Source: an uncultured Thermodesulfobacteriota bacterium
GTDB taxonomy: Bacteria > Desulfobacterota > WTBG01 > CAIYCZ01
Reading direction: 5' to 3'
DNA length: 64,000 nt
NCBI GenBank assembly: GCA_964594075.1
Contig: CAZQKW010000009.1
Location: 11,912 to 75,911, forward strand
Part shown: positions 46,410 through 62,820 of the stretch, piece by piece
Layout of the letters: each line of letters starts with the position of its first letter
How positions within the stretch are numbered: position 1 is the first letter of the stretch
Program-made: the position numbers and the translations under genes
The notes under the pieces: model-generated
Seen by the model: only the letters and a program-made list of their open reading frames with translations
The model's database searches: none
What the model was told of the DNA's origin: nothing

Positions 46410-46507
46410 GGAAGTGGACAGGGCACTGGTGGCCCTCCTGGACTTCAAATCCAGTGGGAGGCGTGAGCAACGTCTCCGGTGGGTTCGATTCCCATGCACT
46501 TCCGCCA
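46410..46507 (+). tRNA. selC: tRNA-Sec (anticodon TCA), CCA encoded
   Basis: 98 nt; anticodon arm CTGGA-CTTCAAA-TCCAG (UCA); long variable arm GGAGGCG-TGAGCAA-CGTCTCC; T-arm GGTTCGATTCC; G discriminator + CCA; closely parallels E. coli selC (GGAAG...CTTCCGCCA); TATAAT ~30 nt upstream. Confidence 0.85.
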
Positions 46508-46588
46508 TTTTATAGCAAAAAGCTTTTAGCCATCAGCTTAGAAAGCTTGGGCTGATAGCGGAAAGCTCACCACAAACGGAAATTGATT

Positions 46589-47581
46589 ATGACAAAAGGA
46601 CGGATATTCAGCGGTATTCAGCCAACCGGTATCATTCATCTCGGCAATTATGTGGGCGCCATACAGCAGTGGGTTAAGCTTATGCATGATTACGACTGCA
46701 TTTACTGTATCGTGGACTATCATGCGATTACTATTGAATATGATAGGCAGACGTTGCGGGACAATATTATGGAGGCTGGGGTAACGCTTATTGCCTGCGG
46801 CATTGATCCTGAACGCTGCACGCTGTTTGTTCAGTCGCAGGTGCCGGAGCATACAGAACTGGCCTGGATTTTTAACTGTATCACCCCGATAGGGGATCTT
46901 GAACGGATGACACAATTCAAGGAAAAATCCGCGCAGCACCGCGAGCATATAAATATGGGATTGCTGGACTACCCAGTTTTGCAGGCTGCGGACATTCTTA
47001 TTTATAAGGCCGGATTTGTCCCGGTCGGCGAAGATCAGGTGCAGCACATAGAATTGACGCGCAGGACTGCACGACGGTTTAATAATCGGTTTGGAGAGAC
47101 ATTTCCCGAACCACAAGAGATACTCACGCCCACATCGCGAATCATGGGAACAGACGGCAAAACCAAAATGTCAAAATCATTGAATAATTATATCGGGATA
47201 CTTGAACCGCCGGACGTAATCTGGGAAAAGCTGAGAACTTCGGTCACCGACGAGAATCGCAAGCGCCGTAACGATCCGGGGAATCCTGATATCTGCAACC
47301 TTTTTACCATCCATAAGGTATTTTCAGCGCCGGAAGATATCGCACGAATTAATCGCGCCTGCAGAACCGCGGAGATTGGCTGCATTGAATGCAAGAAAAT
47401 TCTTTTTAATTATTTGATGGCCCACCTTGAGCCTATTCAGCAAAGCGCGGCAAAGCTCCGTGATAAACCTGAACTGGTTATTGATGCACTTGATGAAGGC
47501 GCGCGTCGGTGCAGAGAAATGGCAGCCCACGTGATGGATGAAGTGCGGGTAAAAGTGGGACTGTTGCCTTGCACCAAATAA
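46589..47581 (+). CDS. trpS: tryptophan--tRNA ligase
   Basis: Class I motifs (GIQPTGIIHLGNY HIGH-like, KMSKS). Confidence 0.9.
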   Translation: MTKGRIFSGIQPTGIIHLGNYVGAIQQWVKLMHDYDCIYCIVDYHAITIEYDRQTLRDNIMEAGVTLIACGIDPERCTLFVQSQVPEHTELAWIFNCITPIGDLERMTQFKEKSAQHREHINMGLLDYPVLQAADILIYKAGFVPVGEDQVQHIELTRRTARRFNNRFGETFPEPQEILTPTSRIMGTDGKTKMSKSLNNYIGILEPPDVIWEKLRTSVTDENRKRRNDPGNPDICNLFTIHKVFSAPEDIARINRACRTAEIGCIECKKILFNYLMAHLEPIQQSAAKLRDKPELVIDALDEGARRCREMAAHVMDEVRVKVGLLPCTK

Positions 47582-47928
47582 AAACTGAACCATAGCACAA
47601 GTTTCTCAGCATATTCTCAAGGGTTGCTTTTATGTGCGACCAGTCCGGAGCATGATCGCGGAGACAAGGTCGCGCCTATAAATGCTTCAGCAAAATCTCT
47701 GCCTAACAACTTGAATCAATAATCCGTCTGAACCCCAACATTTTACATACTGTTTACATTCACGAAATACAGGCGATACAAAGCCGTGCTACATTAAATC
47801 CTAAATAACGGCAGCCGTTTTTCCCGGAGCAGTAAAGCCGGAGGTCGGGAAATTAACTTTCCAGGCATGCAGGCTGTGTTGCCATGCCATAACAATAAAG
47901 AACTCATGTAATGAAAGGAGAGATGTAT

Positions 47929-49257
47929 ATGACAAAAGACAAAGAATACGTATTAAAAATGGTCAAAGACCAGAATGTCCGGTTTATCCGCCTCTGGTTT
48001 ACTGATGTTCTCGGATTTTTAAAAAGTTTTGCTATAACACCGGATGAGCTTCAAGGGGCGCTTGAGGAAGGCATGGGCTTTGACGGCTCTTCAATTGAAG
48101 GATTTGCCCGCATTGAGGAAAGCGATATGGTCGCACTGCCCGATCCAAACACGTTCTGCCTTTTGCCATGGCGCGGCACTGAAACACCGGTTGCACGCAT
48201 GTTCTGCGACATCATGCAACCTGACGGCACTCCGTATGAGGGCGACCCGCGCTATGTTTTAAAACGCATGATGAAAAAAGCAGCAGAAAAGGGCTACACA
48301 TTTTACACCGGTCCGGAGCTTGAGTTTTTCTTTTTCAAAAACCAGGATGCACCGCCGATTACACTTGACCGTGGCGGATATTTTGACCTGACCCCTCTTG
48401 ATGTTGCCAGCGATCTGAGACGTGAGATAGTCCTCACCTTGGAAGAGATGGGTATTGTCGTAGAATACAGCCATCACGAAGTAGCACCAAGCCAGCACGA
48501 AATTGATCTGCGCTATGCCGATGCACTTACTATGGCTGATAATGCCATGACTTATCGTTTGGTGGTCAAAGAAATTGCCATGCGCCAAGGCGTTTATGCT
48601 ACATTTATGCCCAAACCCTTGTTTGGCCAAAATGGCAGCGGCATGCATACCCACCAATCTCTCTTTAAAAAGGATAAAAATGCCTTTTTTGACGCCACTG
48701 ATGAATACCACCTCTCGGCCGATGGAAAATCCTATATTGCCGGCATTCTCACCCATGCGCGCGAGATTTGCGCGGTACTCAGTCAGTGGATTAACTCCTA
48801 CAAGCGGCTGGTGCCCGGATACGAGGCGCCGGTGTATATTTCCTGGGCGCGGCGCAACCGCTCTGCCCTGGTCCGTGTCCCCATGTATAAACCGGGGAAA
48901 GAAAAAGCAACACGCATTGAACTGCGTTGTCCAGACCCGGCATGCAATCCATACCTTGCGTTCGCGGTGATGCTCGCAGCAGGACTGAAGGGTATCGAAG
49001 AAAAGTATAAACTGCCAGACCCGGTTGAGGAAGATATATTTGAAATGAGCGATGCCGAACGCGAGCGGAGAGGGATCGGATCTCTTCCCGGCAGTCTGAA
49101 TGAAGCAGTTAATGAAACGGAAAAAAGTTCTTTGGTCAAAGAAGCACTGGGAGACCACATCTTTAACAAGTTCATTGAAAACAAGAAAATTGAATGGGAC
49201 AATTACCGCGTTCATGTATCGCAGTTTGAGCTGGAGCGCTATCTGCCCGTTCTATAA
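47929..49257 (+). CDS. glnA: glutamine synthetase type I (start at ATG 47929 after AAAGGAGAG)
   Basis: GS beta-grasp and catalytic domains (FDGSSIEGF, GPELEFFF, NGSGMHTHQSLF). Confidence 0.9.
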   Translation: MTKDKEYVLKMVKDQNVRFIRLWFTDVLGFLKSFAITPDELQGALEEGMGFDGSSIEGFARIEESDMVALPDPNTFCLLPWRGTETPVARMFCDIMQPDGTPYEGDPRYVLKRMMKKAAEKGYTFYTGPELEFFFFKNQDAPPITLDRGGYFDLTPLDVASDLRREIVLTLEEMGIVVEYSHHEVAPSQHEIDLRYADALTMADNAMTYRLVVKEIAMRQGVYATFMPKPLFGQNGSGMHTHQSLFKKDKNAFFDATDEYHLSADGKSYIAGILTHAREICAVLSQWINSYKRLVPGYEAPVYISWARRNRSALVRVPMYKPGKEKATRIELRCPDPACNPYLAFAVMLAAGLKGIEEKYKLPDPVEEDIFEMSDAERERRGIGSLPGSLNEAVNETEKSSLVKEALGDHIFNKFIENKKIEWDNYRVHVSQFELERYLPVL

Positions 49258-49300
49258 TATGCAAAGGTACGTGGCTGGGTAACGACCGAGAAGTTTTGAG

Positions 49301-49975
49301 ATGTTTTTAATTCTTGAGCACGAACCTGCAGAAGGGCCGGGTATATTTCTGCCCCAACTTGTTGAGAGAGGAATATCTTATAGAAGGATAAGTCTTTTTA
49401 GCGGACAGCCGATACCCGAAACAAAGGACCTGAACGGCGTTTTGATTATGGGCGGGCCGATGAATGTTTATGAAGAATCGGCCTATCCATTTCTGGCAAA
49501 AGAAGACCGCTTTATAAAATACTGCATGCGCACCGCCGTTCCCGTGCTTGGCATTTGCCTTGGCGCGCAGCTCATTGCAAAGGCAGCCGGTTCAACAGTA
49601 TACAAAGCCCCGCATAAGGAAATAGGATGGTATGAAGTGCGGCTGACGGAAGAAGGTCGGCGTGATCCTTTGCTGGCAGAATGCCCGTCAACTTTTTCGG
49701 TGTTTCAATTTCATGAAGATACCTTTGATATTCCAACAGGCGCCGTGCATATTATAGAAGCACCAACGTGTCCTCATCAAGGATTCAGGATTGGCACCAC
49801 TGTTTATGGCCTTCAATTTCATGTTGAAGCCACTGCTGAAATGATTGCAGAGTGGATTGCAGATCAGGAAGTAAATGAACGAGAGATACGACAGCAGACA
49901 GCGCATAACATGAATTCCTGTCAACAGATAGGCAAAAATTTTTTTAAAAACTTTTTAGCCCAGTGCAGGCGATAG
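49301..49975 (+). CDS. class I glutamine amidotransferase-like protein
   Basis: Catalytic Cys in GICLGAQL, His/Glu in C-terminal part. Confidence 0.6.
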   Translation: MFLILEHEPAEGPGIFLPQLVERGISYRRISLFSGQPIPETKDLNGVLIMGGPMNVYEESAYPFLAKEDRFIKYCMRTAVPVLGICLGAQLIAKAAGSTVYKAPHKEIGWYEVRLTEEGRRDPLLAECPSTFSVFQFHEDTFDIPTGAVHIIEAPTCPHQGFRIGTTVYGLQFHVEATAEMIAEWIADQEVNEREIRQQTAHNMNSCQQIGKNFFKNFLAQCRR

Positions 49976-50012
49976 CGTGCACTGGGCAGTGTTAAAAACA
50001 GGAGGTAATGAT

Positions 50013-50387
50013 ATGGCAATTAACTGGGGGCCTCACTTCATTGTTCCCTCGAAAAAATTGACGCACCTTTCCGGCAAGGTTGTGCTTCGGGAAAGTTTTG
50101 ATGAAGAACTATTAAATAAAGAACTCGCGTCTTGCGGTGTTACCGGAAGTCCGGTTCGGGCAACCAATCCGTGGTACTACCGCAAAAAAAATGCGGAGAC
50201 CTGGATAAAAATAGGCGAATCTTCAGATCGGGGAAATTGGTTTTCTGTTTCCTGGGACACTACAGAGTTGGAAAATGGCGCCTACCAGATACTGGGAGTG
50301 ATGCATGTTTTCATTAGAGACGGAGATCGGGAACAGGTAGTATGCAGAGAAAATATAGTGGATGTGATGGTCGAGAATCCGGCTTAG
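50013..50387 (+). CDS. hypothetical protein
   Basis: AGGAGG RBS before ATG 50013; no recognisable motif. Confidence 0.35.
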   Translation: MAINWGPHFIVPSKKLTHLSGKVVLRESFDEELLNKELASCGVTGSPVRATNPWYYRKKNAETWIKIGESSDRGNWFSVSWDTTELENGAYQILGVMHVFIRDGDREQVVCRENIVDVMVENPA

Positions 50388-50576
50388 CACATTCAGGTAA
50401 TGTCGCTCGCTCACATGATAAAATGAATTTATAAACGGGTAAGCAGGGTCTGGTCATGGATTTAACATTTTTAAGGGGTTTGCATTTGTAATTTTCTGTT
50501 TGTTTTGGTATTTATAAATATTTTCTGTCAAAAAGTGGCAAGTGGGCTAAAAGTATTTTATATATTAATCAGATTT

Positions 50577-50990
50577 ATGGAACGCGAATTCACTCCCAGC
50601 ATCCTCATATTCTGTTGTCAGAATGCAGTTGTTTCTCCCAAAAAACTGATTGAAGAATTTGATCACCCTGAGACCATAACGGTAATCGAACTTCCTTGTT
50701 CGGGTAAGATGGAGACCATCTATGCATTGCAGGCTTTTGAAAAGGGCATTGATGGCGTTTGCGTAACCGGCTGCAGGGAAGGACAATGTCATTACCTTGA
50801 GGGCAACCTGAGAGCGGCAAAACGAGTCCATCAAATTGCAGTGGTGCTGGATGAGTTACATCTGGGCGCTGATCGGGTGCAGATGCTGAATGTAGATTCT
50901 GCTGATGATTCGGCATTTAAGCAGTCTGCGGGGGCTTTTATTCAGCGGCTTAAAACCATCGGACCAAATCCCTTGAAAAAGGGGGACTAG
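50577..50990 (+). CDS. MvhD/FlpD-like hydrogenase-delta-subunit-type iron-sulfur protein
   Basis: ILIFCCQNAVV N-terminal Cys pair and CVTGCREGQCHY cluster typical of the FlpD/MvhD family. Confidence 0.5.
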   Translation: MEREFTPSILIFCCQNAVVSPKKLIEEFDHPETITVIELPCSGKMETIYALQAFEKGIDGVCVTGCREGQCHYLEGNLRAAKRVHQIAVVLDELHLGADRVQMLNVDSADDSAFKQSAGAFIQRLKTIGPNPLKKGD

Positions 50991-51087
50991 TTAGCCACCC
51001 CAGCGTCTTTTATTCCTGTCGTGCCGGCAGGCTGTGTTACGGTTAGTTCTTCCATTTACTTGTTCAAGCAGTAAAGGTCACATAACT

Positions 51088-52479
51088 ATGCCCAAAAAGT
51101 ATCATATTGATTTCAAGCAGGCTGCGCCCCGCTATACGCCGCTGGGCAAATCGGGGATTATTGATTTTCGGGAGGGATGCACCCGCTGCCGTCCCTGCGC
51201 AAAAAAGGCCTGTGTATACAATGTGTATGATAAGCGCAATTTTGACAATGTATTGATGCTGGATTCCATAGATTACCTCTGTAAAAACTGTTTTCGGTGT
51301 GTTCAGCAGTGCAAAAAAGGCCTTTTAACCAAGTCCACCAATCCGGAATATGAAAAAATGGGCGATGCCTATTGGACGCCGGAAATTATCGCTACTAACT
51401 GGGCGCAGGCTGAAACAGGGAAGATTCCTGTTTCAGGGGCCGGTTACGGCGGGCCGTTTGCTGGGCCCGGATTTGACAGCATGTGGACAGATATGTCAGA
51501 AATTGTGCGCCCCACCAGAGACGGGATTCACGGCAGGGAATATATAAGCACCGCGGTTGATATAGGGAAAAAACTGCCACAGCTCTATTTTAATGACGCA
51601 GGAGTCCTTGCATCCCCGTTTCCCCCGCTAATCGAATTGCCCATACCCATGATAATGAGTTTTCCCTCATTCGGGCATATAAGCAAAAACGTGAAGAGTG
51701 CACTGGCGCTGGCGGCATCAAAGGTCGGAACCATGCTGCTGATATCGGCAGAAGATTATGAAGACTATTTAATAAATTATAAACAGTGTCTCATACCCCA
51801 GTTCTCTGAGGAACACTATGCGATGCTACAAGACAAGATTGCTGGACATCGCGCAATTGAAATAGTGTATTCAAAAGGCAGCAGCGAGCTGTTTAAAGAA
51901 ATTAAACAGAAATTCCCTGATGTTATTGTTTTTTTCAAAGTACCGCTGGACGGGAGAGAACTGGAAATCAGTGAAGAGCTTGTTTCTCAGGGTGCCGAAG
52001 TTATCCACCTGTATGCCGATGACAACGGGAATGAAATTGGCAAAACAAATCCGCGGTTTATCAAAGACATGATTCGGCGCGTACACCTGCGACTGGTAGA
52101 ACTATGTCTGCGCGATCACATCACACTAATCGCAGGCGGTGGCATTGCCATGGCGGAGCATGTAGCCAAAAGTATTATATGCGGGGCAGATGCAGTGGTA
52201 ATGGATATTGCACTGCTCATTGCGCTGGAATGCCGGCTCTGCAAACGATGTATAAAAAATCGGCCATGCCCCGTTACTATTGACAGTATAGAACCCGCCT
52301 GGGGATCGCAGCGCGTAATGAATCTGCTCTCAGCTTGGCGCAACCAGCTTCTGGAAGTGCTTGGCGCCATGGGCCTTAGAGAAGTGAGGCGACTGCGGGG
52401 TGAGGTGGGACGTTCTATGTTTTTTGAGGAATTGGAAGCAGATGTTTTCGGGAGGCTTTTTGGAAAGAGATTAACATGA
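51088..52479 (+). CDS. glutamate synthase domain-2 (FMN)-like protein with N-terminal 2x[4Fe-4S] ferredoxin motifs; divergent paralog of the next gene
   Basis: CTRCRPCAKKAC and CKNCFRCVQQCKKG Cys clusters; IAGGGIAMAEHVAKSIICGADAVVMDIALLIALECRLCKRC parallels the next gene's IASGGIRTAHDVAKAIALGADGVVIGTADMVALECVRCHNC. Confidence 0.5.
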   Translation: MPKKYHIDFKQAAPRYTPLGKSGIIDFREGCTRCRPCAKKACVYNVYDKRNFDNVLMLDSIDYLCKNCFRCVQQCKKGLLTKSTNPEYEKMGDAYWTPEIIATNWAQAETGKIPVSGAGYGGPFAGPGFDSMWTDMSEIVRPTRDGIHGREYISTAVDIGKKLPQLYFNDAGVLASPFPPLIELPIPMIMSFPSFGHISKNVKSALALAASKVGTMLLISAEDYEDYLINYKQCLIPQFSEEHYAMLQDKIAGHRAIEIVYSKGSSELFKEIKQKFPDVIVFFKVPLDGRELEISEELVSQGAEVIHLYADDNGNEIGKTNPRFIKDMIRRVHLRLVELCLRDHITLIAGGGIAMAEHVAKSIICGADAVVMDIALLIALECRLCKRCIKNRPCPVTIDSIEPAWGSQRVMNLLSAWRNQLLEVLGAMGLREVRRLRGEVGRSMFFEELEADVFGRLFGKRLT

Positions 52480-54029
52480 CAGCACAGAGTAAGATTGCAG
52501 AACCGGCAGACCGCCGCCAAACGTTTCCGCCAATTAAACGCGCTCCGTCGCGATTCAGAAACCCCATCGGAAAATATAAAATCAGAAGGGGGGCGCAGTG
52601 CATTGCCTGCGGGAAATGCGCCACACTGTGTCCGGAGGGTGTTCACGTAAAGGCGGGAGACGCAATGGGTAAACCGCATGACTTTTACTGCCTGGGGTTT
52701 TCCTGCAAAAACAATTCATTTTATTGTATTGATAATTGCCCGGTACATGCGTTGCGGCTGGTCGAGAACCCGTTGTGCCAGACGTTAGGCGATTTGCGCT
52801 GGACCAGCGATCTGCTGATTAGCACCTGGTACATGGCCGAAACCGGCGAAGTTCCCCGGGCAGACATTGAGTATTGCCTCGGCAACAGTAACGGGGGGTT
52901 TGACAAGCTGAGATTTAAAGCTGCCGCCACAATGCCGGGAGCCGAAGTTTCTGATGATGAAATTTCTACCGCAATTGATCTTAACCGCAGCAATGACGGA
53001 CGCCCCTTGGTGACCATTCAGGTTCCTTTTTATGGCGGCGGCATGTCGTTTGGCTCGGTAAGCTTAGCCACCATGGTGTCGCGGGCGAAAGCTGCTGCGG
53101 CGTGGGGGTCCTTTGGTTGTACGGGAGAAGGCGGCTATCCTGAGCACCTCATACCATATGACAACCATATGATCACCCAAGTCGCGACTGGTTTGTTTGG
53201 TGTCCGCGAGCAGACAATTCAGCGCGTGCGCATTGTAGAATTTAAATACGCGCAAGGCGCTAAACCCGGTCTTGGCGGTCATTTGCTGGGCGACAAGGTA
53301 ACGCCGGGCGTGGCCAAAATGAGAGAAGCGGTGGTCGGCAACGCCCTGTTTTCTCCCTTCCCCTTTCATAGCGTGTATTCGGTGGAAGACCACAAAAAAC
53401 ATGTTGACTGGATAAAACATGTAAATCCACAGGCGCTGGTATCCGTTAAAGTATCCACGCCCACCGATGTGGATATGGTTGCGGTGGGCATATATTATGC
53501 GGGAGCGCATATCATTCACCTTGACGGCAGTTACGGCGGAACTGGCGCAGCACCTGATATTGCGAAAAAAAATATCGCTATGCCCATTGAATATGCCATA
53601 CCCAAGGTGCATCAGTTTCTTTTGGAAGAGGGTATTCGGGATCGTATTACCCTCATTGCCAGCGGCGGTATCCGCACCGCCCATGATGTGGCCAAGGCAA
53701 TTGCACTGGGCGCAGACGGCGTAGTTATTGGTACTGCTGATATGGTGGCGCTTGAATGCGTGCGCTGCCACAACTGCGAAAGCGGGCGGGGATGCGCCCG
53801 AGGCATTGCCAGCACGGATCCCCGTCTGTCGGAAATGATAACAGTTGAATGGGGTGCCCAGCGGATAATAAACCTCTATACAGCATGGCGCACGCAATTG
53901 GTGCAGATACTCAAGCAATTCGGCATGCGCAGTATAAAAGAACTGGTTGGACGAACTGACTGCTTGTATCATGTTGATTATGTGGAGGGAAAGGATTCCG
54001 TGCACAGAGCAGCAGGAGGAGGAAACTGA
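52476..54029 (+). CDS. archaeal-type glutamate synthase FMN-binding subunit (GltB domain 2-like) with N-terminal ferredoxin motifs
   Basis: 4Fe-4S motifs (CIACGKCATLCPEG), Glu_synthase FMN domain segments (GGGMSFGS, KPGLGGHL, IASGGIRTAHDV); ATGA overlap with upstream paralog. Confidence 0.65.
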   Translation: MTAQSKIAEPADRRQTFPPIKRAPSRFRNPIGKYKIRRGAQCIACGKCATLCPEGVHVKAGDAMGKPHDFYCLGFSCKNNSFYCIDNCPVHALRLVENPLCQTLGDLRWTSDLLISTWYMAETGEVPRADIEYCLGNSNGGFDKLRFKAAATMPGAEVSDDEISTAIDLNRSNDGRPLVTIQVPFYGGGMSFGSVSLATMVSRAKAAAAWGSFGCTGEGGYPEHLIPYDNHMITQVATGLFGVREQTIQRVRIVEFKYAQGAKPGLGGHLLGDKVTPGVAKMREAVVGNALFSPFPFHSVYSVEDHKKHVDWIKHVNPQALVSVKVSTPTDVDMVAVGIYYAGAHIIHLDGSYGGTGAAPDIAKKNIAMPIEYAIPKVHQFLLEEGIRDRITLIASGGIRTAHDVAKAIALGADGVVIGTADMVALECVRCHNCESGRGCARGIASTDPRLSEMITVEWGAQRIINLYTAWRTQLVQILKQFGMRSIKELVGRTDCLYHVDYVEGKDSVHRAAGGGN

Positions 54030-54174
54030 CGCTAAAAATCCTTAACGTTACCTGCGACCCTCTGTGCCACTTTACAAATTTAACCCATCCCGGCATGGGG
54101 GGTGAGGATTTGGGTTTCAGGGTTTAGTATCCCAAAGCTATTTAAGCATCGAGGCTATTTAATTTATTCATACC

Positions 54175-56805
54175 ATGAAAGATATAGCTGTTATTCAAAA
54201 AATTATTGCGTCGCGCAGAACATTGATACCTGCCCAAGCAAGCCGCCACTATCAGAAGGTGGAGGAAGAAGGGGGGTGCGGTGTTACCGGATTCGCCTCA
54301 TCAATTCCGGTAGGCGGCAAACACATCTTTGAGCCCTCAGTGCAGATGCACAACCGCGGCAATGGCAAAGGGGGAGGAATTGCGGCGGCCGGCTTGTGCG
54401 CCGACGACCTGGGTGTCACGCAGGAAATCCTTGATAATGATTATCTGTTACAGGTAGCTTTTCTTGACCCGCATGCTCGCGAGCAGGTTGAACAGGAATG
54501 CATCCGGCCATTTTTAGACATTGATAATGCGGAACGGATTCCCACCATAGATGATTTCCGCGAGATAGCGGGCCTTGAGACGCGTCCTCCGGATGTATGG
54601 CGCTACTTTGTGCGGGCGAAGGAAAAGGTCCTTGCTGATTTCAGAGAAAAACATGGTTTGGAAAAGCTGGATTATAGAAAAGCGGAGGATGAGTTTATCT
54701 ACCAGAATTCCTATCGCTTGAACCAGAAATTTTACACCTCGTTAGGCGAAAAACGGGCGTTTGTTCTTTCCCACGCGCGCGACATGATGGTGCTGAAAAT
54801 TGTTGGCTATGCCGAACAGGTGGCACAGTATTATAAACTTGAAAATTTCAAGGCGCATATCTGGATTGCCCATCAGCGCTACCCGACCAAAGGTAAGGTC
54901 TGGCACCCGGGCGGCGCGCATCCATTTATTGGGATGCATGAAGCATTGGTGCATAACGGTGATTTTGCCAACTATTACTCGGTGACGGAGTATCTTCGGC
55001 AGCGAAATATTTATCCGCAATTTCTCACAGATACCGAAGTCTCAGTGCTGTTATTTGATTTGTGGAACAGAGTGTATGGATATCCGCTTGAATATATCAT
55101 TGAGGCGTTGGCGCCCTCGGGCGAAATGGATTTTGATTGTCTGCCGCCAGAAAAACAAAAAATTTACCGGGCCATTCAGGCAGCACATATTCATGGCTCA
55201 CCTGACGGCCCGTGGTTTTTTATAATTGCTCGGCATGATCCCTACACCAATCGCTATCAACTGCTGGGAATTACCGATACCTCTATGCTTAGGCCGCAGG
55301 TATTTGCCCTGCAGGAAAGCGAGGCCGTGCAGATCGGTCTCATCTGTTCTGAAAAACAGGCCATTGATGCGACGCTGCATAGTCTCTCGGAAGAAGATAA
55401 ACGGTTCGGCCCCATCGCAGACAAATACTGGAATGCGCGCGGGGGAAGCCATACAGATGGCGGCGCCTTTTTGTTTGAATTTACCAAGAACGGCTCGTCC
55501 ACTGCGGCCGCAGGTTTTACCTGTCGAGACAAATTTGGCAGGATAATATCTACGGCACAGAACCAGCAGCATCGTGATCGCAGCATCGAAGTCTTTTCAG
55601 CCCCTGCCCCTGCCTCTGGCGCGGCAGACGTGCTATCTGCATTTGAAGAAAAAACCGCGGTGGAGATGTTTGAAGTAATAAGAAATAAGATTCAGCAGTG
55701 GGATTTTACCACCTGTGGCTGGTGTTTTGATCAGGTGAGCGCGTTTGGCAGCCGTGATGGGGCGGCCTACGAGAAAGCTCTCGGAGTTCTTACGCGCCTG
55801 ATTGATTACCGTTATGCAACCGGCAGCAAAAAACGCAGCTCGCTACTTGAACTGCTCAATCGCAGCCTGTATAAATTGTTTGCCAGTGTGCCCCAGATCA
55901 TAGACCCGGCCACCGTCCCTTGTAAGCGGATTGACTGGCAGTTGCGCCAGCACCTGCGGCCGCCGGCGGCTTCGGAAACGACGCTCATTGTTTATGCGCG
56001 AGACTTTCCGCCCGAAGGCGAAGACTGTGATGCGCGCCTGTTATGTGATGCTTATAAACTGGGATGGAAACGTTTTATTGTCTATGGATGCCGTGGCCAG
56101 CGTTTTTATGGATGCGGATTTGGGCCGGATACGAGCGGGGTGCGTATTGATGTGTACGACAGCTCGGGCGATTATCTGGGATCCGGCGTTGACGGTATGG
56201 AAATATATGTGCACGGCAATGCTCAGGATCAGCTCGGGCAGATAATGAAGGCCGGTAAGCTGGTGATTTACGGCGATGTGGGACAAACCTTTCTTTACGG
56301 GGCCAAAGGGGGCGAGGTGTTTGTCATGGGTAATGCGGCAGGACGCCCGCTTATTAATGCAGTTGGCTGTCCCCGGGTCGTTATTAATGGCACCTGCCTT
56401 GATTACCTTGCTGAATCATTTATGGCGGGAGACCCGCTCAAAGGGGGTGGCTTTGTTGTGCTTAACGGACTGGAATATGATGAAAACGGTGTCGTCAGAG
56501 AACAGGCCGTCCCCTATCCCGGATCAAACCTCTTCTCGTTGGCTTCTGGTGGAGCCATTTATGTTCGCGATCCCCATAAACTGGTTGTTGAGGAGCAGCT
56601 GAACGGCGGCTCATTGGTTCCCCTTGCGCAGGAGGACTGGCACCTGATCCTGCCCTATTTGCAGGAAAATGAAAGATTGTTTGGTATATCAATTGAAAAG
56701 GATCTCCTGACGGTCAACGGCTCAGTAAAGACCCCGTACGAAGTGTACCGAAAAGTTGCGGCAGTAAGGCTTGCCGTGCTGACCGACGTTGATGATGATG
56801 CATGA
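54175..56805 (+). CDS. glutamate synthase amidotransferase (class II GATase) + GXGXG domain fusion (GltB domains 1 and 3-like)
   Basis: Cys nucleophile in GGCGVTGF after a ~33-aa putative propeptide; C-terminal GXGXG repeats (GDVGQTFLYGAKGGEVFVMGNAAGRPL). Confidence 0.65.
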   Translation: MKDIAVIQKIIASRRTLIPAQASRHYQKVEEEGGCGVTGFASSIPVGGKHIFEPSVQMHNRGNGKGGGIAAAGLCADDLGVTQEILDNDYLLQVAFLDPHAREQVEQECIRPFLDIDNAERIPTIDDFREIAGLETRPPDVWRYFVRAKEKVLADFREKHGLEKLDYRKAEDEFIYQNSYRLNQKFYTSLGEKRAFVLSHARDMMVLKIVGYAEQVAQYYKLENFKAHIWIAHQRYPTKGKVWHPGGAHPFIGMHEALVHNGDFANYYSVTEYLRQRNIYPQFLTDTEVSVLLFDLWNRVYGYPLEYIIEALAPSGEMDFDCLPPEKQKIYRAIQAAHIHGSPDGPWFFIIARHDPYTNRYQLLGITDTSMLRPQVFALQESEAVQIGLICSEKQAIDATLHSLSEEDKRFGPIADKYWNARGGSHTDGGAFLFEFTKNGSSTAAAGFTCRDKFGRIISTAQNQQHRDRSIEVFSAPAPASGAADVLSAFEEKTAVEMFEVIRNKIQQWDFTTCGWCFDQVSAFGSRDGAAYEKALGVLTRLIDYRYATGSKKRSSLLELLNRSLYKLFASVPQIIDPATVPCKRIDWQLRQHLRPPAASETTLIVYARDFPPEGEDCDARLLCDAYKLGWKRFIVYGCRGQRFYGCGFGPDTSGVRIDVYDSSGDYLGSGVDGMEIYVHGNAQDQLGQIMKAGKLVIYGDVGQTFLYGAKGGEVFVMGNAAGRPLINAVGCPRVVINGTCLDYLAESFMAGDPLKGGGFVVLNGLEYDENGVVREQAVPYPGSNLFSLASGGAIYVRDPHKLVVEEQLNGGSLVPLAQEDWHLILPYLQENERLFGISIEKDLLTVNGSVKTPYEVYRKVAAVRLAVLTDVDDDA

Positions 56806-56887
56806 CCGGGAGGTTCACGCGTACCGTGCGCAATAAACAGTTTTCATACGGTAATTTTTGGAGCGCAAGGCAGCGCGAGGGTTGTTT

Positions 56888-58009
56888 ATGAAAGCCATTT
56901 TAGCATTAGAAGACGGGAGCGTTTTTACCGGCACATCCTTTGGCGCAACCGGCGAGCGGTATGGGGAGGTGGTATTTAATACCAGCATGACCGGTTACCA
57001 GGAAATCCTAACCGATCCATCGTATAAAGGGCAGATCGTAGTCATGACGTATCCCCTGATTGGCAATTACGGCGTCAACGATGAAGATGTGGAGTCGGCA
57101 CTGCCCCAGGTAGAGGGATTTGTGGTACGGGAAGTAAGCCGCATGAGCAGCAATTGGCGATCGCAGCAGACGCTTGCGCAGTACCTCAAAGAACATAATG
57201 TGGTCGGCATTGAAGGCGTTGATACCCGCAAGCTTACCAAACACATCCGCACAGTGGGCGCGATGAAAGCAGTGCTGTCCAGCGAGGATCTGGATGAGCG
57301 GCGGCTGGTAAAAAAAGCCAAGGACTCACCGGGCTTGGTCGGGATTGATCTGGTCAAAGAAGTCACCTGCCGGCAGCCGTATTCATGGAACACGCTGCGT
57401 GGACAAACTGGCATCACCGCCTGCGATAACGCGTCGCCGGCAGGCCGGTTTTCTTATAAGGTGGTCGCCATAGACTGCGGTATAAAATATAACATTCTGC
57501 GGCTCTTGCAGACTGCGGGATGCGATGTAACCGTGGTGCCTGCCCATACCAGCGCGCAAGAGATTACCGCCATGAATCCCCACGGAGTTTTTTTGTCCAA
57601 CGGGCCGGGCGATCCCGCCGGTGTGCCCTATGTGGTTGAAACGGTGCAAAAGCTTATGGGTTCGTATCCCATTTTTGGCATTTGTCTGGGGCACCAGATG
57701 CTGGGCCTTGCCTACGGTGGCAAAACCTATAAATTGAAGTTCGGCCATCGCGGCGGGAACCAGCCGGTCAAGCACCTTGCAACAGGCAAAGTTGATATTA
57801 CCTGTCAGAATCATGGTTTTTGTGTTGACGTAACATCCCTTAACCAGGACGAAGTGGCACTGACGCATATCAATTTAAATGATCAAACCATAGAGGGGAT
57901 GCGGCATAAAAAATATCCGGTATTTTCCATACAGTATCATCCCGAATCATCCCCCGGTCCCCACGATGCCCGCTATCTGTTCAACGAATTTATAAAACTG
58001 ATGCAATAG
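56888..58009 (+). CDS. carA: carbamoyl-phosphate synthase small subunit
   Basis: CPSase small-chain N-domain + GATase1 (GICLGHQ catalytic Cys). Confidence 0.9.
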
Positions 58010-58031
58010 TTTCCCTGCGCGTACTAATCAC

Positions 58032-61000
58032 ATGCCACGCAGAACAGACATCCATAAAATTCTCATCATTGGTTCCGGCCCCATAGTCATTAGCCAGGCC
58101 TGCGAATTTGACTACTCCGGCACGCAGGCATGCAAAGCGCTGAAAGAAGAAGGGTTTGAAGTGGTTCTGGTTAACAGCAATCCGGCAACTATCATGACCG
58201 ATCCGGAGATGGCTGATAAAACCTATATTGAACCCATTACCCCGGATAGTGTTGAACTGATAATCAAACGCGAGCACCCCGATGCGCTGCTGCCCACCAT
58301 GGGAGGGCAGACAGCCCTCAACGTTGCATCACTGCTGGCGGAGAAAGGCGTGCTAGAGCGCTACGGCGTGAAGATGATTGGCGCGCACTATGAGGCAATC
58401 CGCAAGGCGGAAGACCGGGAATATTTCAAGAACGCAATAAAAAAGCTGGGTCTTGACCTGCCGCAGAGCGGACTTGCCCACACTATGGATGAAGCGCGCG
58501 CCATAGCCGCGCGCTTAGGATTTCCGCTCATCATCCGCCCCAGCTACACGCTGGGCGGCACGGGCGGCGGGATTGCCTACAACACGCAGGACTTTGTAGA
58601 GATCGCAGCCCAGGGCCTGCAGTGCAGCATGATCAACGAGATTCTTATTGAAGAATCGGTAATCGGCTGGAAAGAGTATGAGCTCGAGGTGATGCGTGAC
58701 CTGAAAGACAATGTGGTCATTATCTGCTCGATTGAAAATCTTGATCCTATGGGCATCCACACCGGCGACAGCATCACCGTTGCGCCTGCGCAGACGCTGA
58801 CCGACAAGGAATACCAGCAGATGCGGGATGCCGCCATTGCGATTATCCGGGAAATCGGGGTTGAAACCGGCGGATCAAACATTCAGTTTGCGGTGAACCC
58901 GGAAAACGGGCGCATGGTGGTCATAGAAATGAATCCCCGGGTTTCGCGAAGTTCCGCCCTTGCTTCAAAGGCCACGGGGTTCCCCATTGCAAAAATGGCG
59001 GCAAAACTTGCAGTCGGCTACACCCTTGACGAAATACCTAATGATATTACCAAAGAGACGCCGGCTTCCTTTGAGCCCACCATTGATTATTGTGTGGTTA
59101 AAATACCGCGCTTCACCTTTGAAAAATTCCCTGAAACCGACCCGACGCTGGGCATTTCCATGAAATCAGTGGGCGAAACCATGGCGATCGGCAGAACCTT
59201 CAAGGAAGCGCTGCAAAAGGGGTTGCGCTCCCTTGAAATTGGGCGCTGGGGGCTCGGCGCAGACGGTAAAGACCCGGTTGTTGCCGATCAGCAGGAATGG
59301 ACGGCGCTGGTGAGAAAAAAACTAGCGACCCAGAATGCGGAGCGCATCTTTTATGTGCGCCATGCTTTTCAATTGGGAATGTCCCTGGCCGAGATTCGCG
59401 ATCTGAGCAAAATTGATCCGTGGTTTTTAGATAACATAAAACAGATTGTTGACACTGAACAGCAGATACAAACAGCGGTTAGGACATGGTGCACTGCACC
59501 GGCTCATACCCAGAACCCGATTGCAGGGCACACCACATTTCTCTGGAAGATTAAACAATATGGATTTTCTGACCGGCAGCTTGCCTGGCTATCAGGCCTT
59601 GACGAAGATTCCGTTCGCCAGATGCGGGAACAGGCGGGCATCAAACCGGTATTCAAGCTGGTTGACACCTGTGCGGCAGAGTTTGAAGCCTATACGCCCT
59701 ATTATTATTCAACCTATGAGCGGGAAAACGAGGTCAAAAAAACCACCTGCAAGAAAATTATGATACTGGGCGGCGGTCCGAACCGCATCGGCCAGGGAAT
59801 TGAGTTTGATTACTGCTGTGTGCATGCATCATTTGCTTTGCGGGATCTGGGGTATGAGACCATCATGGTCAACAGCAACCCGGAAACAGTAAGCACTGAT
59901 TATGATACCTCAAGCAGGCTTTATTTTGAGCCCTTAACCCTGGAGGATGTCCTGAATATTGTCGCAGCAGAGCAGCCTGACGGGGTCATTGTGCAGTTTG
60001 GGGGACAGACGCCACTCAATCTCGCGGTGCCGCTGGCGCGACACAATGTGCCGATTATTGGCACCTCGCCCGACAGCATTGACCGCGCGGAGAACCGCAA
60101 GCGCTTTACCGCGGTGCTGACAAAACTGGGGCTTCGCCAGCCGCCCAATGCGACAGCGACCTCGGTAGCTGAAGCGGTACACAAGGCCCGCGAACTGGGG
60201 TTTCCGGTGCTGGTGCGGCCATCGTATGTGCTGGGCGGCAGGGCAATGCGGATTGTTTATGATGAAGATACCTTGCGCCGGTTTGTGCATGAGGCCATAA
60301 CCGTCAATCCCGAACACCCTATTCTGGTGGACAAATTTCTTGAGGACGCCATAGAAGTTGACGTGGATGCGGTTGCAGACGGGGAGAGCTGTGTTATTGC
60401 CGGCATCATGGAGCACATTGAACAGGCCGGCATTCATTCAGGCGACAGCGCCTGTGTCATTCCGCCCTATTCACTGTCAGACCGCATACAGGAAATTATA
60501 CGGCATAATACCTTTGCCCTGGCGCGCGAACTCAATGTCGTAGGCCTTATGAACATCCAATGTGCCATAAAAAACGACACTGTTTACATTCTGGAGGTTA
60601 ATCCCCGGGCATCACGCACCGTGCCGTTTGTCAGCAAGGCAACCGGCAGACCCTGGGCAAAAATCGCGGCCCGGGTCATGGTCGGGAAAAAACTTCAGGA
60701 GCTTGGCATAACCAGCGAGGTGAGGATAGGGCACTTTGCAGTCAAGGAAGCAGTGTTTCCGTTTAATCGGTTTCCGGGCGTGGATCCGATTTTAGGCCCG
60801 GAGATGAAATCAACGGGCGAAGTCATGGGCATCGATGAGGACTTTGGCAAAGCATTTCTCAAATCGCAGCTTGCTGCAGGCCAGCGGTTGCCGCGAGACG
60901 GAACGATCCTTATTAGTGTCAATGATCGGGATAAAAAATTAATAACAGAAAGTGCAAAACAGATGGAAGCATTGGGGTTCACTCTGGTGGGCACTGTTGG

Positions 61001-61304
61001 CACCGCCCGGTATCTCAAGGAGCAGGGAATCACCATCAGTGCTGTGTCAAAACTTGGGGAAGGACGGCCCAATATTCTGGACCTGATAAAAAATGACGCC
61101 ATTAATCTGGTAATCAATACACCGTCAGGCAAGGAGTCTGCACACGATCAGATAACCATTCGGCGCAGTGCAATACAGTATGGCGTTCCCTATATTACGA
61201 CTATTCCGGGGGCTGCGGCTGCCGTGCGCGGCATTGCATCCTTGAAAAAAGGTACCCTCACGGTTAAAACGATTCAGGAATACCATCAAAAAAGCAAACC
61301 ATAA
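58032..61304 (+). CDS. carB: carbamoyl-phosphate synthase large subunit
   Basis: 1090 aa; duplicated ATP-grasp halves, MGS-like C-terminal domain. Confidence 0.95.
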
Positions 61305-61449
61305 CTTCAAAATTCTAAAACTAAATAATATCAAATCTCACCCACTAAAGAGTTTAGAATTTAGAAATTCGGATTTAAGTTTTAACTAAAAACTGAGTAT
61401 AGTAATTATTCAATTTATACTAACCCCATTGCCAAAAAGAGGCAGAGAA

Positions 61450-62820
61450 ATGATGAAATATATGCCTTTGTCACGAAGTTTGCGTGAAGAGTGCGGCATT
61501 TTTGGCATTTATCATCATCCACATGCGGCTGAGATTGCCTACCTGGGCCTGTATGCCCTTCAGCACCGGGGCGAGGAGAGCGCCGGCATAGTTGTTTCTG
61601 ATGGCACGCGTGTTATAGGCCATAAAGGTATGGGGCTTGCAAGCGAAGTGTTTAACCCTGAAATTCTCCGGCAGCTCTCAGGACACCATGCCGTGGGACA
61701 CATCCGCTACTCCACCACCGGCGCATCAGAACTTAAAAATGCGCAGCCGTTTCTGGTGGAATATTCGCAAGGGCCGGTTGCCATTGCCCACAACGGTAAC
61801 CTGGTCAATATCAGAGAATTAAGAGCTGCCCTTGAGCAGCGTGGTTCAATCTTCCAGTCAACCATGGACAGTGAGGTGATTGTCCACCTTCTGGCCTGTT
61901 CGCAAAAAAACGCAGTAGAGGATCGGCTCATAGATGCGCTCGCGCAAGTGAAGGGCGCATATTCCCTTATTTTCCTTTTTAAGGATAAGCTGATCGGAGT
62001 CAGAGACCCGCGCGGATTCAGACCGCTCTGTCTGGGAATCTTGAATGGCTCGTATGTGCTTGCCTCTGAAACCTGTGCATTGGACATTATACAGGCTCAT
62101 TATCTCCGAGACATTGAACCGGGAGAAATTGTAATTATAGATGATTCTGGAATACGATCCATGTATCCCTTCCCTCCGGAAAAACATGCCTTTTGCATCT
62201 TTGAATTCATTTACTTTGCGCGACCGGACAGTGCCATTTTCGGCAAGGGGGTTTATAGTGCCCGCAAGGAACTCGGGCGGCAGCTTGCCCATGAAAGTCC
62301 TATTGCGGCAGATATTGTTGTTCCCATGCCCGACTCCGGAAACTGTGCGGGGCTTGGGTTTGCAGAGGTATCAGGGATACCGTTTGAGATGGGCATCATC
62401 CGTAATCATTATGTGGGAAGAACGTTTATTCAGCCCGCGCAATCATCCCGTGACCTGCGGGTAAAGATAAAACTAAACCCTGTACGGGAAGCAATAGCAG
62501 GGAAACGCATTGTGCTGGTAGAAGACTCCATTGTGCGCGGCACCACCAGCCGTATCAGGATCAAAAACTTTAAGGAGGCCGGCGCACGAGAAATTCACAT
62601 GCGCGTCAGTTGCCCGCCCCACCGCTATCCCTGCCTGTACGGCATTGACTTCCCCACCCGCGAGGAGCTGGTGGCGTCCTCCCACACCGAAGAAGAAATA
62701 CGGCAGTTCCTCGGCCTTGAAACCCTCGGCTACTTAAGCATCGAGGGAATGCTTAAAGCCATGCCCCTGCCTTCAGAAGAATTCTGCCTTGCCTGTTTTA
62801 CTGGCAAATATCCAACCTGA
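61450..62820 (+). CDS. purF: amidophosphoribosyltransferase (with short propeptide before Cys1)
   Basis: CGIFGIY class-II GATase nucleophile after propeptide; PRTase domain; C-terminal Cys residues suggesting 4Fe-4S type. Confidence 0.85.
   Translation: MMKYMPLSRSLREECGIFGIYHHPHAAEIAYLGLYALQHRGEESAGIVVSDGTRVIGHKGMGLASEVFNPEILRQLSGHHAVGHIRYSTTGASELKNAQPFLVEYSQGPVAIAHNGNLVNIRELRAALEQRGSIFQSTMDSEVIVHLLACSQKNAVEDRLIDALAQVKGAYSLIFLFKDKLIGVRDPRGFRPLCLGILNGSYVLASETCALDIIQAHYLRDIEPGEIVIIDDSGIRSMYPFPPEKHAFCIFEFIYFARPDSAIFGKGVYSARKELGRQLAHESPIAADIVVPMPDSGNCAGLGFAEVSGIPFEMGIIRNHYVGRTFIQPAQSSRDLRVKIKLNPVREAIAGKRIVLVEDSIVRGTTSRIRIKNFKEAGAREIHMRVSCPPHRYPCLYGIDFPTREELVASSHTEEEIRQFLGLETLGYLSIEGMLKAMPLPSEEFCLACFTGKYPT

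Follow-up and report, generated by a model that had tools for sequence, protein, structure and literature searches.

We describe here a cluster of ten genes in a window of 64,000 nucleotides (the whole stretch of DNA that was analysed; contig CAZQKW010000009.1 of assembly GCA_964594075.1, positions 11,912 to 75,911) from an uncultured Thermodesulfobacteriota bacterium. The best explanation of the region is a glutamine-centred nitrogen-assimilation cluster with four genes at its core, mvhD, A, B and F. From the gene context, we favor with moderate confidence the view that their products make up a four-protein glutamate synthase (GOGAT, glutamine:2-oxoglutarate aminotransferase), in which A would serve as an electron-entry adaptor and MvhD as the usual input. 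We consider it likely that the complex acts as a GOGAT, with A as an Fe-S subunit that has no catalytic role. That MvhD is a genuine subunit or input of this GOGAT is somewhat better than an even guess. The module is apparently an undescribed, though widespread and conserved, variant of glutamate synthase (GltS).

The ten genes are contiguous on the + strand and span 47911-62820, according to the list of open reading frames (ORFs) and to Pfam and NCBIfam scans of the window proteins. They are, in order:

47911..49257, + strand: glnA, type I glutamine synthetase (PF00120 and PF03951; TIGR00653 at 553 bits, cutoff 429)
49301..49975, + strand: stand-alone class-I glutamine amidotransferase (GATase), GuaA-N/PRK07053-like (PF00117, 75 bits)
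49977/50013-50387, + strand: conserved small protein without a Pfam or NCBIfam match
50577..50990, + strand: mvhD, MvhD/FlpD-type [2Fe-2S] electron-transfer protein (PF02662, 104 bits)
51088..52479, + strand: A, a GltS-like paralog of B (PF01645 over the C-terminal ~100 amino acids (aa) alone, 61 bits)
52476..54029, + strand: B, an N-terminal 2x[4Fe-4S] domain and a flavin mononucleotide (FMN)/2-oxoglutarate synthase barrel with a four-Cys cluster (PF01645, 316 bits)
54175..56805, + strand: F, an 876-aa fusion of a glutaminase and a GXGXG domain (PF01493, 48.9 bits; PF13522, 26.5 bits)
56858..58009, + strand: carA, carbamoyl-phosphate synthase glutaminase subunit (TIGR01368 at 534 bits, cutoff 307)
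58032..61304, + strand: carB, carbamoyl-phosphate synthase large subunit (1090-aa ORF; the identical gene in locus L002 has CPSase_L domains)
61429..62820, + strand: purF, amidophosphoribosyltransferase (TIGR01134 at 526 bits, cutoff 350)

The intergenic gaps within the cluster range from 1 to 189 bp, and the genes for A and B overlap by ATGA. The co-directional order and this overlap had been proposed in the initial annotation and are confirmed, as is its pairing of one glutamine producer (glnA) with several glutamine consumers (the GATase, the GltS-like proteins, carA/carB and purF). In the ORF list, mvhD starts with a TTG at 50505. Both its homologs and the JGI gene call for an identical metagenome contig point instead to the ATG at 50577 as the start codon.

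B is best read from its motifs as the canonical FMN/2-oxoglutarate synthase subunit. It matches the FMN domain of Azospirillum GltS alpha at 8e-56 and retains the KxAQGAKPGxGG loop, the Arg that follows it, SPFPFH...YS(V/I)ED, GGTGA and the GGI...GAD strand. Eight N-terminal Cys are sufficient for two [4Fe-4S] clusters, and a CX2CX2CX5C motif stands at the position of the CX5CX4C ligands of the [3Fe-4S] cluster in classical GltS. All 12 Cys of B are 100% conserved. In both A and B the CX2CX2CX5C motif probably holds a [4Fe-4S] cluster. The combination that marks the FMN/2-oxoglutarate barrel of a GOGAT (PF01645, Lys loop, Arg and GGTGA) is present in B and absent from A.

Aligned along its whole length, A shares 28% identity with B. 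The family-level alignment shows that a 44-residue block (GAKPG...Arg...SPFPFH), with the Lys/Arg 2-oxoglutarate loop inside it, is missing from A, as are TGEGG, GGMSFG and GGTGA. Because the GAKPG/Arg loop, GGTGA and TGEGG are lost, A is probably an Fe-S-only subunit and catalytically dead, and the initial description of A and B as tandem FMN-subunit paralogs is wrong for A. What A does retain are eight N-terminal and four barrel Cys, which are invariant in 50 sequences and sufficient for three Fe-S clusters; these 12 are among ~120 invariant columns in the family alignment. The family has more than 7700 matches, which are spread across phyla and share 50-60% identity; clustering at 50% identity yields ~261 clusters that reach E<=1e-30. 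A is therefore under strong purifying selection. Its AlphaFold2 (AF2) model is a TIM barrel, and Foldseek places it near TIM barrels of the FMN type, 1OFD among them. A and B are joined in a single protein of ~1000 aa in five genomes that belong to different phyla, with the motifs of A in the first half and GAKPG/GGTGA in the second half only. Translational coupling and these natural fusions suggest that A and B would be present in a 1:1 ratio.

Residues 105-153 of A (window 51400-51546; PVSGAGYxGPFxGPGFDxMWTDMSEIVRPTRDGIHGREYI) form a near-invariant segment, and B has no counterpart conservation. Residues 115-152 are unstructured in the AF2 monomer, with a predicted local distance difference test (pLDDT) score below 50, and the barrel is modelled confidently. 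Near-invariant and yet partly unstructured in the monomer, the segment probably serves as an interface or as a functional site. We also considered whether A is the counterpart of the central domain of classical GltS and rejected this, as hhalign gives a probability of 0.7% to E. coli GltB 440-850 versus 87% to the FMN domain. The match of the A hidden Markov model on E. coli GltB is limited to residues 974-1113. A functional analogy to the central domain is possible.

F consists of a leader (residues 1-34), an N-terminal nucleophile (Ntn) class-II glutaminase (Cys35 to ~450), a helical linker (~480-570) and a GXGXG beta-helix (~600-876). The glutaminase has the motifs EEEGGC35GVTGF, R235 (QRYPTKG), N261-G262 (HNGDFANY) and D286 (TDTEV), and C35, R235, N261-G262 and D286 are invariant in 52 sequences. 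We take these four to be the catalytic motifs of Ntn glutaminases, as in PurF and GlmS. The domain check suggested at the outset succeeded for PF01645, PF01493 and PF02662 and failed for PF00310, which F does not match; PF13522 lies just under its cutoff (26.5 bits versus 27), and the fold matches GltS, GlmS and PurF. For the beta-helix, PF01493 scores well above its cutoff of 32.5 bits, and hhalign gives 88.8% to the beta-helix of E. coli GltB. The AF2 model of F has a pLDDT of 79, and its top Foldseek matches are the large subunits of GltS (6e-12 to 1e-8), followed by GlmS and PurF. By sequence, the glutaminase domain is very divergent from classical GltS.

The initial description of the synthase as split, with a degenerate paralog next to a canonical FMN subunit and a fusion of glutaminase and GXGXG that has a leader, was thus correct, except that the leader before the nucleophile Cys35 has 34 residues and not 33. 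The leader (window 54175-54276) is conserved at I10, S13, an invariant R14 and L17, and is predicted to be helical. This conservation exceeds what is expected of a disposable propeptide.

At least 587 species-representative genomes carry a gene of the F type, and the F homologs among the matches listed are all 60-77% identical to F of the window. We retrieved 80 loci, in which ORFs were called and classified with BLAST (loci are labelled L001 and so on, proteins P0265 and so on). The carriers are Desulfobacterota, Dehalococcoidia/Chloroflexota, ANME-1 archaea, Latescibacterota, Nitrospirota, Planctomycetota, Poribacteria and one Marinifilum. As the family is mostly bacterial, the label "archaeal-type" given to it initially is misleading. 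Wherever the sequence suffices, A-B stands upstream of F, except in a few Latescibacterota and one ANME-1 locus.

MvhD of the window has the PF02662 fold and the four [2Fe-2S] Cys of the MvhD/FlpD family. These Cys are 96-100% conserved in 51 module-linked MvhDs, and solved MvhD chains match the window protein at 8e-23. The upstream arrangement could be counted in the ~51 loci with at least 4.5 kb of upstream sequence, and in 46 of them mvhD lies upstream on the same strand. The order of the window, mvhD-A-B-F, occurs in 16 loci from several phyla. In a further 24 (including L015, L016, L022 and L023) the order is mvhD-metV-metF-A-B-F, and in six (L001, L042, L065, L075, L079 and L081) it is mvhD-metV-A-B-F, where MetV is defined by PF12225 (DUF5981) and MetF by PF02219 (MTHFR). 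The linkage fits the electron-input role that had been proposed for MvhD; the further claim that this input is dedicated goes beyond the linkage, with metV or metV-metF intervening in 30 loci. No fusion of MvhD to A occurs among 150 representatives.

Another protein takes the place of MvhD in some lineages. In ANME-1 and in one Desulfobacteria locus (L073), a GlcD-like protein replaces mvhD directly upstream of A (L029 5105-6946, L056 71-1981, L073 5273-7144). It has 613 aa with FAD_binding_4, FAD-oxidase_C and 2x[4Fe-4S] domains, and an exhaustive search of representatives found three proteins (P0265, P0274 and P0278) in which the N-terminus of A is fused to the GlcD-like module. From its domains, the GlcD-like protein looks like an alternative electron-input module. 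The upstream neighbour of A thus varies between MvhD and a GlcD-like protein, the latter at times fused to A, and therefore A is best seen as an electron-entry adaptor.

The nitrogen-assimilation context follows from the neighbouring genes glnA, amtB, PII, carAB, purF and nadE. Upstream of the module, glnA is present in 17 related loci; carA/carB flank it in 14 loci (carA directly downstream of F in ~14), purF in eight, and amtB together with PII in ten, and nadE is a further flanking gene. The order glnA-mvhD-(metV)-A-B-F-carA-carB-purF recurs in the unrelated Desulfobacterales CP070768, and in ANME-1 the order is glnA-...-F-carB-carA. Because the order recurs in CP070768 and the core recurs across phyla, the arrangement is not due to chance.

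We suggest the following mechanism. Glutamine made by GlnA would be hydrolysed at Cys35 of F, which would become the N-terminus after removal of the 34-residue leader. The ammonia would pass to B and add to 2-oxoglutarate, and the imine would be reduced by FMNH2. Electrons would reach the FMN by way of a chain formed by the [2Fe-2S] cluster of MvhD and three clusters each in A and B. In this complex, A would be a duplicated synthase subunit without the substrate site and probably also without the FMN site, kept as an electron-entry adaptor and, in a 1:1 ratio, as a structural partner of B. The usual plug that links A-B to a low-potential donor would be MvhD; this donor may be ferredoxin, or a partner of the hydrogenase or Hdr type whose gene lies elsewhere. 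B would be the sole catalytically competent synthase subunit, and F the supplier of ammonia.

Several results weigh against this proposal. The glutaminase of F has no sequence-level likeness to that of E. coli GltB (hhalign probability of 0.3%), and the cluster motif of A and B is CX2CX2CX5C, not the classical CX5CX4C of a [3Fe-4S] cluster. A retains the GGI/GAD phosphate-binding strand, and residual binding of FMN is possible. No HdrA-like sequence was found in the 64-kb window by tblastn, though HdrA is the normal partner of MvhD. In 30 of the 46 loci with mvhD, metV or metV-metF separates it from A, and MvhD could belong to MetVF. A neighbour-joining tree of the MvhDs, which is rough and built from short sequences, does not separate GltS-adjacent from MetV-adjacent copies. 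The largest gap in the cluster is an AT-rich stretch of 189 bp directly upstream of mvhD (window 50388-50576). Scans of the cluster for sigma-54 consensus and sigma-70 promoters gave results no different from shuffled sequence, and a terminator scan gave counts at the level of shuffled sequence, with zero terminator-like sites within the intergenic gaps. Neither a sigma-54 consensus nor a convincing sigma-70 consensus was found in the gap at 50388-50576. An internal promoter may be present there, in which case mvhD-A-B-F could be co-transcribed as a unit of its own.

The placement of MvhD is also the point on which the strongest alternative turns. It holds that A, B and F form a ferredoxin-dependent GOGAT that is fed with electrons directly by way of its own 2x[4Fe-4S] domains, and that MvhD is a component of MetVF/Hdr which is merely co-located and was left behind after the loss of metVF. 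A and B each have a ferredoxin-like entry domain, metV or metV-metF follows mvhD in the 30 loci mentioned above, and units of HdrA-like protein, MvhD, MetV and MetF exist as separate neighbours. The pairing of MvhD with MetV is known from the HdrABC-MvhD-MetVF complex of Moorella (PMC5736913). However, the 16 loci from several phyla that keep mvhD directly before A, that of the window included, have no metVF near, and the four Cys of MvhD are conserved. In L069, metVF and A are each preceded by an mvhD gene of their own, and six loci have MetV without MetF. We therefore regard this alternative as unlikely, though it deserves to be kept in mind. The insertion of metV-metF and the HdrA-like-MvhD-MetVF neighbours are not explained by a simple ferredoxin-GOGAT model. 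On this account two alternatives are to be weighed, namely that MvhD is a co-located part of MetVF or Hdr systems, or that GOGAT and MetVF have an Hdr/MvhD-type redox hub in common, perhaps a bifurcating one. As for the insertion of metV/metF between mvhD and A, none of the explanations considered here accounts for it.

Less probable still is a role of the module in flavin-based electron bifurcation of the Hdr/HdrL type, as its high-potential acceptor arm. MvhD would then dock the GOGAT (and, in many genomes, MetVF) on an HdrA-like flavoprotein, and the reduction of 2-oxoglutarate plus glutamine by NAD(P)H or H2 would drive the reduction of ferredoxin. MvhD bridges to HdrA in every solved complex among the PDB matches, and units of an HdrA-like gene (930-1490 aa), mvhD, metV and metF adjoin the module in five loci (L018, L020, L057, L063 and L069). 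It is established thermodynamics that NAD(P)H has a more negative potential than either the methylene-tetrahydrofolate or the 2-iminoglutarate couple; potentials of FMN and clusters are given in PMC8097209. Against this, an HdrA-like gene is near the module in only ~5-7 of the 80 loci and there is none in the window, and anabolic flux is small compared with energy metabolism. A broader form of the idea is that ammonium assimilation in a large share of anaerobes, Desulfobacterota and Dehalococcoidia among them, is wired into the Hdr/MvhD redox machinery. In that case, MvhD would dock GOGAT, and often MetVF too, on HdrA/HdrL or on a hydrogenase, glutamate synthesis would be a high-potential bifurcation arm, and A would be a universal adaptor for donor modules that can be exchanged, such as MvhD or GlcD-like dehydrogenases. 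We regard this as speculative and doubtful.

It is very improbable that the complex uses its GltS-like parts for some other amidotransferase or redox reaction, as an enzyme resembling N-methylglutamate synthase with a GlnA-like ligase would. The glutaminase and GXGXG domains are both very divergent from classical GltS, and split GltB1/2/3-like proteins do carry out other chemistry, as in MgsABC. The window glnA, however, scores above the TIGR00653 type-I glutamine synthetase equivalog cutoff, no mgd- or sarcosine-oxidase-like genes are present in the cluster, and B keeps the full set of 2-oxoglutarate/FMN motifs at the level of similarity to GltS alpha given above. The neighbours are amtB, PII, carAB and purF. 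On the grounds of glnA, the lack of mgd-like genes and the gene context, we reject a reading as N-methylglutamate synthase/gamma-glutamylmethylamide synthetase. Lastly, a decaying pseudogene copy of B, a status for A that the initial annotation had itself raised, has practically no chance: A has lost the catalytic loop and matches only one third of PF01645, but its ORF is intact, the family is large and conserved with its 12 Fe-S Cys kept, and fusions of A with B and with GlcD-like modules are conserved.

Some further genes lie within or near such clusters. For the class-I GATase, the top NCBIfam model is PRK07053 (178 bits versus a cutoff of 250); such a gene also stands before mvhD in L051 and L063, and after glnA in L089. 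The small protein (50013-50387) belongs to a family of 122-132 aa with 479 homologs at 60-80% identity. These homologs adjoin glnA-GATase1, amtB-PII-glnD or a sigma-54 GAF activator (e.g., L086 7001-7369 and L089 7001-7369), and from this context the protein appears to be a member of the nitrogen regulon. A third Glu_synthase-like paralog (~524-550 aa, with a weak partial match to PF01645) is found upstream of glnA in L001 (1-750), L006 (2354-3928), L007 (1282-2913), L075 (1-1692) and L079 (451-2028), and is absent from the window. A tRNA-Sec gene with anticodon TCA (46410-46507, + strand; RF01852 at 74 bits) lies upstream of a tRNA-synt_1b gene (46583-47581) and glnA, and the organism therefore uses selenocysteine. 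This was the only match in the Rfam scan, which showed no glutamine riboswitch or leader. The remaining genes of the window are Gram-negative housekeeping genes (lptA, kdsD, glmS, glmU, alaS, tkt and nrd), and the nearest genomes are those of uncultured Deltaproteobacteria/Desulfobacterota.

GOGAT is the main route of ammonium assimilation, and to our knowledge only the NAD(P)H and the plant/cyanobacterial ferredoxin forms have been characterised. Among the carriers of the module are sulfate reducers, Dehalococcoidia and ANME-1, which dominate anoxic sediments. Neither A nor F has a curated model in NCBIfam, and database labels for them are "ferredoxin", "hypothetical" or "glutamate synthase-related". 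A full-text literature search, with subscription-only journals outside its reach, gave no description of the module; papers with both MvhD and glutamate synthase concern GltD-like domains or unrelated genes. If our proposal is correct, the module would be a fourth class of GOGAT and a clear case of a catalytically dead paralog kept as an electron-transfer subunit. It would also tie nitrogen assimilation, in a way that can be tested, to the MvhD/Hdr/MetVF redox modules of anaerobes, and the annotation of thousands of genes would be corrected.

The module has the same three parts as the large subunit of classical GltS (NADPH-GltS alpha and ferredoxin-GltS; 1EA0, 1OFD and 7MFM), namely a glutaminase of the Ntn type, a TIM barrel for FMN and 2-oxoglutarate next to an Fe-S cluster, and a GXGXG beta-helix. 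Unlike the classical enzyme, it is split, with the glutaminase and the beta-helix in one protein and the FMN barrel apart. It has no PF04898 central domain as such and no GltD beta subunit. It has, in addition, the paralog A with Fe-S clusters only, the N-terminal 2x[4Fe-4S] domains on A and B, and the attached mvhD, and its cluster motif has four Cys (CX2CX2CX5C) in place of CX5CX4C.

Archaeal-type split GltS ORFs, in which the domains of GltB are separate genes, have been noted, though they are uncharacterised and were never purified (PMC8097209). The putative F420-dependent FGltS I/II are examples of swappable donors on a split GltS (PMC3448663). These systems share with the module a stand-alone FMN subunit with a ferredoxin-like N-terminus and a modular, lineage-variable electron input. 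The module differs in its glutaminase-GXGXG fusion, in the obligatory dead paralog and in being mainly bacterial. Its input is MvhD or GlcD-like and not an FrhB/FdhB-like F420 dehydrogenase, and the Pfam and NCBIfam scans found no such dehydrogenase domain in any cluster gene. In the HdrABC-MvhD-MetVF complex of Moorella thermoacetica, as in the module, MvhD (with MetV, with or without MetF, in 30 related loci) adjoins a flavin/Fe-S reductase of a relatively high-potential substrate. Here the reductase is GltS-like, and HdrA, HdrB, HdrC, MetV and MetF are all absent from the window.

Finally, a second type of split GOGAT is present in the same lineages. In Syntrophaceae (L086 9447-14369), a 376-aa protein, an Fer4+PF01645 subunit (544 aa) and a fusion of GXGXG with a GltD-like NAD(P)H/FAD domain (>777 aa) adjoin a sigma-54 activator. 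Like the module, it has an Fer4+PF01645 subunit near nitrogen regulators. It differs in having its own GltD-like NAD(P)H-type module fused to GXGXG, and in being without paralog A and MvhD. The coexistence of this type underlines the modularity of split GltS enzymes.

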